Origin: Candidatus Rokuibacteriota bacterium
GTDB lineage: Bacteria > Methylomirabilota > Methylomirabilia > Rokubacteriales > CSP1-6
Assembly: GCA_016184305.1 (NCBI GenBank)
Contig: JACPCX010000178.1
Coordinates: 1,618-65,617, forward strand
Reading direction: 5' to 3'
Length of the DNA stretch: 64,000 nt
The position numbers were made by a program. The stretch's first letter is position 1, and every line of letters begins with the position of its first letter. Of the stretch, positions 60,001 through 63,000 are shown in pieces.

Positions 60001-63000
60001 CGCTGGTGATCAATCTCATGGGCAATGCGCTGCGGGACTGGCTCGACCCGCACATGAAGCTATAGTCGGGCGAGCCGCAGCCGAAGGCGAGGCGAGCGAA
60101 GATGGAAATCCCCCGAGCGGAGCGAGGCGGCGAGCCGCAGCCGAAGGCGAGGCGAGCGAAGATGGAAATCCCCCGAGCGGAGCGAGGCGGCGAGCCGCAG
60201 CCCGCAGTGCGAGGCGGAGCCGAAGGCGAGCCGAGCCGATGGATCGGGAGAGCGCGAAGCGCGCCGAGGCGAGCGAACATGGAAATCCCCCGAGCGGAGC
60301 GAGGCGGCGAGCCGGCGTGATGGGACTACTTGTAGCCGGTGCCGGCCTGCTTGTACTCCTCGCGGGGGGGCGAGAAGATGTCGAGCACCAGGGCCCGCGC
60401 GTTGGGCAGGGCCCGCCCGCCGTGGGGGACGTCGGGCGGCGTCTGCCAGAAGTCGCCGGCCTTGACATGATGCTCGACGCCGTCCTGGATCCGGATCCAC
60501 TCCCCCTCGAGGCAGACGCCCCACTGCTCGTTGGGATGCGCGTGGACGGGCGACACCGAGCCCGGCTCGATCTCGACCACCGAGAGCATGAGGTGTACGC
60601 CGGGGAAGACGCGAGCGCGAATCCCCTCGGTGAGCTGACGCGGGATCCCGCCGGTCGCGAGGTGATGGAAGTGCGACGCATCGGTCATGGATGGCTCCTT
60701 TCGCGATTGACTGCCGCCATTGTAACGGCTGGCGGCACCGAGGCGCACGGGTGACAACGACCCAGATCGGGCGAGCGAACCGATGAGACTCTTTCTGGCC
60801 ATGATGTCCCACGAGACGAACACGTTCAGCAATGTGCCCACCGACAGGGCCCAGTTCGAGGCGCGCAACCTCCATTACGGCGATGACATCGTGGAGGCCT
60901 TCCGCAGCACCGGCACCTGCCTGGGGGGCATGATCGACGCGGCCGAGCGCCACGGCGTCCGCCTCGTGCCCTCGGTGGCGGCCGCGCCCTCGCCGGCCGG
61001 GCGCGTCACGAGCGTGATCTACGCGCAACTCGAGGAGCGCCTGCTCGCCGATCTCCAGGCCGCGAGCCCCGTGGACGGGGTGCTCCTCGACCTGCACGGC
61101 GCCATGGTGCCCGAGGGGCTCGACGACGGGGAGGGCGACCTCATCGAGGCGGTGCGCAAGGTCGTCGGCCCGCGCATCCCCGTCGCCGTGACGCTCGACC
61201 ACCACGTCCTCGTGGTCAAGTCCACCATCCACTACCGGGCGGCCTTCGAGCCCATCGCCCGGGAGATCATCGAGGTGGACGCCCCGGGGCTGTCCTCGTC
61301 GAATCTCGAGCGCTTCGACTTCACGCGCGTCCGCCGTCCCATCTTCCCGCTCGACGCGGAGACGACGTACCCGTGAGGCGCGCCCGGCGCGTTCTCTGGA
61401 CGCTTGCGGTCTTCGCGGCGGGCGCCGTCGTCGGGCTCGGTGCCGGGAGCGCGCTCTCCGCGTCCACGCCGCGGATGTGGGCGGATGTGCTCCTGACGCG
61501 GACCACGAGCGAGATCCCGCGCAAGGTGTTCCTCCGGGTCAACGACGACCACTGGGATCCCGGCGCCGAGGGCGGCTGGCACCGCCACCCCGGGCCGACC
61601 ATCCTCTATGTCATGGAGGGAGAGCTGTCGGAGGCCACGCGAGAGGGGCCGAACACCCTCAAGCGGGGGCAGGCGGTCTGGCGCCCCGCGCGCACCGAGC
61701 ACAACGTGAGGAACCTCGGTCCGGGCCCGGCCCGGGCGCTGGCCATCCATCTCGACCCGGCCCAGTGAGCCCGACGTAGCGAGGAGATCGGCGATGGCGT
61801 TCCCCGGCTTCACGGCAGCGGACTTCAAGGTGTTCGAGATCGACGGCTTCGCCCCCCGCATGGAGGCCATCAAGCGGCGCATTCGCCCCAAGCTCGAGCA
61901 GGCGGGGCGCGAGCTCCTGACCGACGTGACGCGGGTCGGCGCGGCTCCAGCGTTCGCGCACGTGGCCAAGCACGCCCGTCGCACCGTGAACCCACCGGAC
62001 GACACCTGGGTGGCCTTCGCCGCCGACAAGCGCGGGTACAAGCAGCACTGCCATTTCAAGGTCGCCGTGTCGCGCGGGGCGGTGCGCTTCCTCTTCGAGG
62101 CGGGCCCCGAGCACGCCGACAAGAAGCGGTGGGTCGCGGCGTGGAAGCGGGACGCGCCCACGGTGGTACCCGTCCTGCGGCGCGCCAAGGGCCTCGCGTG
62201 GTTCAGGAACGAGCACGACGAGGCGCCCGCGGCCATCCTGAGCGATCTCCCGGCAGAGGCCGTGACTCGCCTGGGCGAAGCGCTCCTGCGCAAGCGGGAC
62301 GGCCAGATCGTCCTGGGCCGCGCCGTCACGGCGCAGGAGGCCGCCCGCTGGAAGCCCGCGGACTACGCCCGAGCGGCGCGCGAGACCTTCCACCTGCTGG
62401 CGCCCTTGTACCGGCTGCGGTAGTGGATACGGGCGGGTCGGGGTGAGCGAGAGGTGGTCGTCACTTCCGAGGACGTCAGGCTCGGCAAGCCCGATCCCGA
62501 GGTGTACGTGCTGGCCGCGCGGCGGCTCGGCGCCGCGCCCGTCGCCTGCGTCGTCTTCGAGGACTCCGTGGTGGGGATCCAGGCCGCGCGCCGGGCGGGC
62601 ATGCGGGCCATCGGGGTGACGACGGCCTACGGCGAGGAGGAGCTGCGCGCGGCCGGGGCGGAACTGGTCATTGGCGACTTCGAGGGGCTCGAATGGGACT
62701 CGATCGCCCGCCCGTGAGCACGGCTGCGTTCTGGGAGGGGCTCTACGCCTCCCGGAGCGACGGCTGGGAGCTGGGTCATCCCGCCCCACCCCTCGCCGCC
62801 TGGCTCTCCGCCGGCGGCGTCTTCCCCGCGCCGGATTCCGGGGAGCCGGCGCGCGTCGCCATTCCCGGTTGCGGACGGGGTCACGATGCCCGCCTGCTGG
62901 CGCGCCAGGGCTACCGGGTCTCGGGCTTCGACTTCGCCGAGGTCGCGATCGCCGAGGCCCGCGCCCTGGCGCAGGCCGAGGGTCTCACCGTCAGCTTCGA

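Follow-up and report, generated by a model that had tools for sequence, protein, structure and literature searches.

A variable-number array of 60-bp units in Candidatus Rokubacteria, probably one locus of a dispersed family of MIRU-like intergenic repeats

The stretch of DNA analysed here, 64,000 nucleotides of contig JACPCX010000178.1 from a Candidatus Rokuibacteriota bacterium (hereafter the window), contains an array of 60-bp direct repeats at 60069-60320, and this period-60 array wholly occupies the 260-bp spacer between an OppC/DppC-like permease gene and a convergent cupin gene. The reading that we favour, and which we hold to be reasonably probable, is that the array represents a locus of variable copy number within a dispersed, lineage-specific family of intergenic repeats of Candidatus Rokubacteria, which resembles the interspersed repetitive units of mycobacteria (MIRUs) and is tolerated at gene junctions. 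At the permease-cupin locus itself, the array most likely has no specific role and is carried as a neutral passenger in the dpp-like operon's 3' untranslated region, since it follows the last gene of this operon and faces a convergent gene.

An earlier note, made from the sequence alone, had described a 60-bp tandem array of two perfect and about two degenerate copies between convergent dppC-like and cupin genes, and this description is confirmed. Tandem Repeats Finder reports positions 60069-60314 with a period of 60, 4.2 copies, 74% matches and a score of 290, which is by far the strongest tandem repeat of the window and the sole strong one among 56 rows. The units are arranged in the order A-A-B-C and are followed by a terminal piece of 15 nt. 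The first two are 100% identical to each other and the fourth is 77% identical to the first, while the third is a diverged unit of 57 nt that does not carry the CCCCCGAGCGGAGCG tail. The 23-nt core ATGGAAATCCCCCGAGCGGAGCG occurs three times and was found in 0 of 100 shuffles. The features of the locus are as follows.

59140 to 60065, plus strand: OppC/DppC-like ABC permease gene, taken from the list of open reading frames (ORFs), start approximate
60063 to 60065, plus strand: stop codon TAG of the permease gene, 3 nt ahead of the first repeat unit (TAG tcg GGCGAG)
60069 to 60128, plus strand: unit 1, type A, 60 nt, with a type-1 hairpin module (GAGCC GCA GCC GAA GGC GA GGCGAG) followed by the conserved tail GAGGCGAGCGAAGATGGAAATCCCCCGAGCGGAGCGAGGC
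60129 to 60188, plus strand: unit 2, type A, the identical copy of unit 1
60189 to 60245, plus strand: unit 3, type B, 57 nt, composed of a 14-nt unit start, CGCAGT, a type-2-like hairpin module and CGATGGATCGG
60246 to 60305, plus strand: unit 4, type C, 60 nt, with the alternative hairpin GCGCG-AAG-CGCGC (60252-60264) followed by the conserved tail
60306 to 60320, plus strand: terminal partial unit GGCGAGCCGGCGTGA, 15 nt, in which the first 10 nt of a unit recur
60102 to 60320, plus strand: frame A ORF, MEIPRAERGGEP..., 72 codons long and with three ATGs in frame (60102, 60162 and 60279)
60326 to 60688, minus strand: convergent Cupin_2 gene, whose stop codon is 5 nt away from where the repeat element ends

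The number of units at this locus differs between close relatives. Orthologous contigs (designated by L numbers) with flanks at least 99% identical carry 1, 3, 4 or at least 5 units in the permease-cupin spacer, with the following arrangements.

L001, L003, L006, L007 and L009: one unit, spacer of 83 bp
L004: A-B-C, spacer of 200 bp
The window: A-A-B-C, spacer of 260 bp
L005: at least two and a half B-C super-units of 117 nt up to the contig end, spacer length not measurable but longer than 260 bp

Since the flanks of L004 and L007 are at least 99.3% identical to the window, we conclude that the changes in copy number are recent. The earlier suggestion of a minisatellite prone to expansion, to be checked by comparing copy number across strains or metagenome reads, is borne out by these lengths. 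Other sites of the family vary as well (1 versus 2, 2 versus 3, and 1, 2 or 4 units), and the contig ends fall inside the array in four contigs (L005, L008, L010 and L072). The insertion itself is old, because the more distant assembly GCA_016188005.1, in which the cupin is 89% identical, has one degenerate unit of 49 nt at the same place. An empty allele of the permease-cupin locus was not found among the relatives: L079 contains one degenerate unit, and the still more remote L081, L082 and L085 contain unrelated repeats.

The permease orthologs in L001, L003 and L007 comprise 300-307 aa with the domains OppC_N and BPD_transp_1, and an identical cupin protein, which NCBI assigns to Candidatus Rokubacteria, is encoded on 22 metagenome contigs (Hainich groundwater and JGI samples). 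Separately, we observed that in L009 (758-1640) the permease gene is for the most part only about 81% identical to the window, and that near-identity to the window extends over the final ~100 nt of this gene, the repeat unit and the cupin gene, which suggests that recombination took place with a breakpoint close to the 3' end of the permease.

The array is not an isolated occurrence. The earlier note had listed a genome-wide motif search as a check and had described a singleton plus one array; both of these are real, but they belong to a dispersed family with about 38 sites. A scan with a profile of the unit yielded 128 units in 87 arrays, which correspond to ~38 distinct genomic sites after clustering with strict criteria. 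Among one genome per species from 185,579 species, the core is present only in the two Rokubacteria metagenome-assembled genomes (MAGs) GWA2_70_23, to which the window is close, and GWC2_70_16, apart from a single match in an Acidimicrobiia MAG that is apparently due to chance. A somewhat looser core pattern matched 62 metagenome contigs and none of the viral contigs, and a phage origin was rejected on the latter ground. Of the arrays, 18 are located on 12 contigs with the prefix Ga0154317. We conclude from these results that the family is a dispersed one, that each genome has at least tens of sites, and that its occurrence is confined to a narrow lineage. Arrays elsewhere have periods of 60, 117 and 123 nt. 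A long form of 175 nt with the same A-B-C organisation is found at six unlinked sites, namely this array, upstream of miaA, upstream of hisG and at three others, which indicates that whole elements have been copied between sites; the B unit of the array likewise follows an A unit at five other unlinked sites.

The window itself holds three family copies, the two others being as follows.

23707 to 23765, plus strand: single full-length unit with a type-2 hairpin module (nhmmer E = 4e-14)
~700 to 765, plus strand: degenerate third family member TTGGCGAGCCGAGCCGGAGGGAGGTGAGCGGATCCGGAGATCCGGGCGAGCGTGAGCGAGCC, with a weak nhmmer hit at 706-742

The second occurrence of the core had been placed at 23744-23765 and the similarity there had been taken to be limited to the core. 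The site is genuine; the core, however, lies at 23740-23761, where a 1-nt deletion, which the consensus used had masked, is combined with a G>T change relative to the array core, and the similarity covers the whole unit. This unit is located in the sense orientation in a 157-bp spacer between two co-oriented genes, 5' of a HisF-like gene (ATG at 23805), and L012 (MAG GWA2_70_23) contains its ortholog. We also noted, at 23680-23765, that GGGGGTCTGGGGGTGGCTTGGC directly 5' of the single unit could pair with GCCAAGC...ACCCCC inside the unit, in a fold that is not better than shuffles (z -0.78). The degenerate copy stands between two genes on the minus strand, to both of which it is therefore antisense, and it includes, at 744-759, an exact terminal module GGCGAGCGTGAGCGAG. 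Just before this copy, at 680-700, stands GCGAGGCGTAC..., a piece of another recurrent motif that also adjoins units at L023:7503 and L027:3690.

The anatomy of the unit was derived from an alignment of 60 distinct units. An element of ~60 nt consists of a short GC hairpin module (unit positions ~2-29), a near-invariant tail (positions ~21-59) and a 3' partial copy of its own first 8-16 nt. The tail is purine-rich and T-poor and follows the consensus GAGGCGAGCGRAnATGGRRATCCCCCGAGCGGAGCGAGG. Because elements end in a partial unit, even single units are bounded by the direct repeat GGCGAGCC, which is a natural substrate for slippage. All units are strictly head-to-tail without inverted repeats between them, and they abut without the unique spacers of a CRISPR array. 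Terminal inverted repeats as in miniature inverted-repeat transposable elements were not found; instead, the ends are the direct repeats GGCGAGCC ... GGCGAGCC, the same at all sites.

In the common form of the hairpin, all 8 proposed pairs are made in each of the 31 distinct units, compared with 25-35% in controls with slid partners. At pair 7-24, 20 units (13 sites) have C-G and 11 units (9 sites) have G-C, with no mixed cases, and the triloop varies freely (GAA, GGA, GCA or AAA). Other hairpins are found at a similar position, namely GCCGCG-CCC-CGCGGC with one C-G to U-A change, GCGCG-AAG-CGCGC (unit 4 of the window) and CGAGG-CGCG-CCTCG. These pairing patterns provide moderate evidence that the stem matters, although the single large covariation could mirror two sub-lineages. 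At the level of overall folding, whole arrays are less stable than shuffles (z +1.8 sense, +2.7 antisense), and the minimum free energy (MFE) of single units is likewise weaker (z +1.0 to +1.8). An old copy in L079 has lost the hairpin and kept the tail. Three further ideas about the core were dropped: an RNA hairpin formed by GGRRATCCCC was rejected since its left half varies without compensation, and two candidates judged by eye, a sigma-54 site with a spacing off by one and a complementarity to the anti-Shine-Dalgarno sequence whose pairing would require a 3-nt bulge, were set aside.

The position of the elements relative to genes was assessed with the coding strand and frame of the flanks inferred from the periodicity of GC content at third codon positions (GC3, which in this genome is at least ~0.9). 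At 28 of 37 sites (p = 0.0026), the gene lying 5' of the element has the purine-rich strand as its coding strand, and between co-directional gene pairs the element is in the sense orientation in 24 of 31 cases. At many sites its left end is located 1-4 nt past the upstream stop codon (TGAtgGGCGAG, TAGgGCGAG), and at about 9 sites the upstream ORF continues into the element. On the downstream side, the ATG frame of the unit (MEIPRAERGG...) either runs in frame into the next gene, as at ~10 sites (e.g. miaA, MTA phosphorylase, iscX, hisG and rimI), or terminates at a TGA overlapping a start codon that is in frame with that gene. Such a single NTGA stop/start overlap (GTGA, TTGA or ATGA) with the downstream start occurs at ~9 sites, and a two-step chain at 2 more; for instance, sucC has TTGA, whereas GTGA is present at a short-chain dehydrogenase as well as at several genes starting with V-S-E in the terminal module. 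Overall, frame A connects to the downstream gene at 25 of 36 junctions, and the two remaining frames do so in 27 of 72 cases (p = 0.002). The ATG-to-ATG spacings amount to 60, 66, 117 or 123 nt, all multiples of 3, in 18 of 21 cases. These junction and orientation patterns are significant but not absolute, and the statistical controls are imperfect.

The junction between sdhB and sucC is found in several states. In L088 the site is empty with a spacer of 13 bp, in L089 the spacer contains only a truncated unit and the terminal module, and one (L020) or two (L034) full units precede the truncated unit in other contigs. The sucC gene is annotated at 388 aa, and its start is the TTG that overlaps the TGA of frame A.

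At the permease-cupin locus, each of the three frame A ATGs sits 9 nt past a GAGG, and the only stop codon in any plus-strand frame of the spacer is the TGA at 60318-60320 inside GTGATG. The array is composed of 67% purine and only 4% T, for which reason all three plus-strand frames are open, and it contains Shine-Dalgarno-like 4-mers (GGAG, GAGG or AGGA) at 4.8 per 100 nt compared with 2.1 in the window. The ORF at 60102-60320 is a pass-through frame and not a conserved protein. The earlier argument against coding thus stands insofar as no protein family and only 1 match in 5.8 billion proteins was found, but it has to be qualified, since at other sites the MEIPRAERGGE frame seems to be of importance for pass-through or coupling.

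Together, the direct 60-nt units, the tens of intergenic loci, the copy variation at the strain level, the transcription-oriented bias and a frame apparently coupled by 4-nt overlaps are the reasons why we take the family to be an interspersed minisatellite of MIRU-like kind, one that would colonise gene junctions. The likeness is one of described properties, and the family would be an analogue rather than a member of MIRU. MIRUs have units of 40-100 bp and 41 loci in M. tuberculosis H37Rv, 12 of them polymorphic, and they are inserted at start codons with a MIRU ORF coupled at -4 (Supply et al. 1997, 2000, as summarised in PMC2734929 and PMC12548453). The array in the window, with its period of 60 and 4.2 copies, matches the direct tandem arrangement and the range of unit sizes, and the two families further share tens of intergenic loci per genome, polymorphic copy number between strains and the lack of a known mobilising enzyme. 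An intergenic position co-oriented with genes (28 of 37 in the sense orientation here) and a unit ORF coupled to the neighbouring gene via a 4-nt stop/start overlap may be further common traits, which in the Rokubacteria family are seen at part of the sites. They differ in the host, which belongs to Methylomirabilota/Rokubacteria rather than to Actinomycetota, and in the separate terminal module GGCGAGCGTGAGCGAG that provides the GTGA overlap in the Rokubacteria family. In addition, about a quarter of the Rokubacteria sites are antisense, and the array at 60069-60320 lies between convergent genes and not within an operon. The Rokubacteria units also carry the small hairpin module with compensatory changes, whereas MIRUs, to our knowledge, are described as being without dyad symmetry.

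Other known repeats fit less well. REPs are imperfect palindromes of 20-40 nt, usually in inverted pairs. Like REP/BIME (REPIN) sequences, the units are short, GC-rich, lineage-specific intergenic repeats with a hairpin, often at gene 3' ends or between convergent genes and sometimes clustered; unlike them, they are strictly head-to-tail with a stem of only 3-6 bp (3+3+2 bp or 5-6 bp), their conserved part is an unstructured tail of 35 nt, and their arrays fold worse than shuffles. A palindromic character is also not apparent from the units, between which no inverted repeats were found and whose MFE is that given above. A gene for a RAYT transposase, the partner of REP sequences, was not seen, but no search was directed at one. 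Correia/NEMIS elements of Neisseria, ERIC/IRU and the Rickettsia palindromic elements cannot expand in tandem and are built with terminal inverted repeats or long palindromes. They are alike in being small, non-autonomous and situated at gene boundaries, where they can give expression signals or be read by ribosomes.

How might such an element spread and persist? Identical neighbouring units together with the terminal direct repeat would drive expansion and contraction via replication slippage or unequal recombination. At operon junctions the element may be tolerated because ribosomes could pass through it or re-initiate from it. Features that would favour this are the almost complete lack of T, and hence of stop codons, and the many Shine-Dalgarno-like GGAG and GAGG motifs; the frame of an internal ATG would then either enter the downstream gene or end on a TGA that overlaps its start (GTGA, TTGA or ATGA). 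This translation-transparent character is a proposal drawn from the sequences.

Several observations weigh against this interpretation. The compensatory changes in the hairpin imply a constraint on a single-stranded nucleic acid, which a transparent passenger does not explain. The orientation bias is not absolute, with ~9 sites in antisense including the window copy at ~700, and the control frames are not independent of frame A. In-frame continuation alone (~10 of 27 sites) is not clearly above the third expected by chance, and in-frame fusion with the downstream gene was for this reason rejected as a general rule. The gene frames were taken from GC3 periodicity rather than annotation, and all gene starts except that of sucC are inferred. 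Furthermore, the assemblies are based on short reads, so that counts of identical tandem units may be wrong. Finally, the locus in the window lies between convergent genes and no co-oriented gene follows at 60318-60320, and therefore the coupling logic does not apply there.

Possible, yet clearly less probable than a tolerated minisatellite, is an active non-autonomous mobile cassette that targets the stop/start junctions of translationally coupled genes and brings along Shine-Dalgarno motifs, a start codon and a GTGA module for re-coupling. In this case the hairpin and tail would form a signal recognised by a putative enzyme acting on single-stranded DNA or RNA. If this were true, MIRU-like elements would have arisen independently in a second phylum, and copy number would tune the expression ratio of the neighbouring genes.

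The main rival places the function on the mRNA, where the small GC hairpins would block exonucleases or be sites of processing and would thereby determine how stable upstream and downstream segments are relative to each other, as REP/BIME sequences do in enterobacteria, and where arrays would tune the strength; we regard this as possible but clearly less probable than the favoured reading. It would account for a hairpin module that is always paired (100% of cells compared with 25-35% in the slid controls), for the switch of pair 7-24 from C-G to G-C (20 versus 11 distinct units) and the C-G to U-A change in another hairpin type, for the different hairpin sequences at one unit position and for the sense-orientation bias. 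The location of the array at the 3' end of the dpp-like operon is also in line with it, as this is a convergent junction for which the scan found no intrinsic terminator. However, the stems are merely 3-6 bp long, whole arrays fold worse than shuffles (z +1.8), and the sole covarying pair could stem from two sub-lineages instead of repeated events; moreover, conservation is best in the unstructured tail and not in the hairpin, and the old copy in L079 kept the former and lost the latter. An array of double-stranded DNA binding sites for a host protein, either nucleoid-associated or a regulator, which recognises the invariant core with its near-palindrome GGRRATCCCC, appears improbable. The core of 24-26 nt is almost invariant over ~38 sites, GGGGATCCCC variants are perfect palindromes and tandem sites would permit cooperative binding, but a symmetric site does not need the observed strand bias relative to genes, GGAA, GGAG, GGGA and GGGG all occur as the left half of the palindrome whereas its right half is constant, the adjacent genes are functionally unrelated and no candidate protein is known.

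Still more remote is a small-RNA gene or a protein sponge, for example one in which AUGGA/GGA motifs titrate a CsrA-like regulator. The AUGGA motif is indeed retained in unit types A, B and C, and several GGA are present per unit; in the predicted folds, however, these GGA motifs are not in the loops of stable hairpins, and the copies are mostly single units that are wedged in between the stop codon of one gene and the start codon of another. No Rfam match was found with Rfam 15 at the gathering threshold in the window, and a permissive scan of 59800-60600 gave only chance-level results (E > 0.5). The promoter/terminator scan revealed no promoter-like sites at the array and 0 terminator-like sites (GC-rich stem plus T run) in 59500-60900. 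A small-RNA or leader repeat, which the earlier note had offered as an option, is not supported, in view of these results, the poor folding (z +1.8 and +2.7) and the neighbourhood: the same element adjoins unrelated housekeeping genes (miaA, hisG, sucC, MTA phosphorylase, iscX and rimI), from which we conclude that it is not a gene-specific leader. Equally remote are a protein-coding low-complexity repeat (MEIPRAERGGEP...) and an assembly artefact. The ORF at 60102-60320 is open and the unit lengths are multiples of 3, but three open frames simply follow from 4% T, the 1-nt deletion in the singleton shifts the frame while the DNA stays conserved, and the single relative in the protein search is a weak peptide match, on account of which the coding interpretation was rejected. 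An artefact would explain why several contigs end inside the array; however, independent JGI, ENA and NCBI assemblies give the same units in the same A-B-C order at several loci.

Further observations concern other repeats and rearrangements in these genomes. A second, unrelated tandem repeat, consisting of two units of ~62-66 nt with GAGGCCCGCAGGGCCGAAGAGGCCAA, is inserted between sucC and sucD (L087:2668-2811 and L020:2345-2490), at a junction that in the relatives L088 and L089 consists of a 4-nt ATGA overlap. This second repeat, which the window does not contain, suggests that several MIRU-like families exist in the lineage. Palindromic hairpin repeats of the form CCCTCTCCCC-n-GGGGAGAGGG / CCCTCACCC occupy the dppC-cupin spacer of relatives with a cupin that is 81% identical (L081:3361-3470 and L082:3361-3462) and recur just 5' of a unit in L015/L016; these hairpin repeats are a separate REP-like family of Rokubacteria. 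A structured motif with nested inverted repeats, GAGCCAGC.CGAGGCGTACGTGGGKGTACGTTGAG.GCTGGCGACGACCGAGAAC, was found in the dppC-cupin spacer of L085 (2864-3126) and directly upstream of antisense-oriented units in L023 (~7604-7670) and L027 (~3745-3810). Two contigs have mixed flanks: L036 joins the left flank of L029 to the right flank of L066, and L014, which is without the membrane-protein gene found after the repeat in L051, joins the left flank of L051 to the right flank of L031. These contigs either arose by recombination or deletion between copies of the repeat or are chimeric assemblies formed at repeats. Beyond the cupin gene, the MlrC-like gene at 60783-61376 (plus strand) encodes 197 aa in the window, compared with 486-494 aa in its orthologs (DUF1485 and MlrC_C). 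Relative to L002, residues ~142-432 are absent in frame, with the junction near 61195-61205 and the surrounding DNA 98-99% identical, so that the short gene is either a real internal deletion or an assembly collapse.

A description of this repeat family was not found in the searchable literature, where the term "MIRU-like" is used in a single, unrelated paper. The main Rokubacteria genome paper notes 8-17% non-coding DNA, and neither "repeat" nor "repetitive" nor "intergenic" occurs in it. To the extent that the literature could be searched, this is therefore the first described interspersed repeat family of the Rokubacteria, which are uncultured organisms of soil and groundwater with large genomes. 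The family explains assembly breaks at such spots in these organisms, and its sites can be used as variable-number tandem repeat markers to separate strains in metagenomes. It also represents an independent, non-mycobacterial example of a minisatellite at operon junctions that is seemingly built not to disturb translation, and it opens a comparative study of the spread of MIRU-type elements and of their possible tuning of operon expression.

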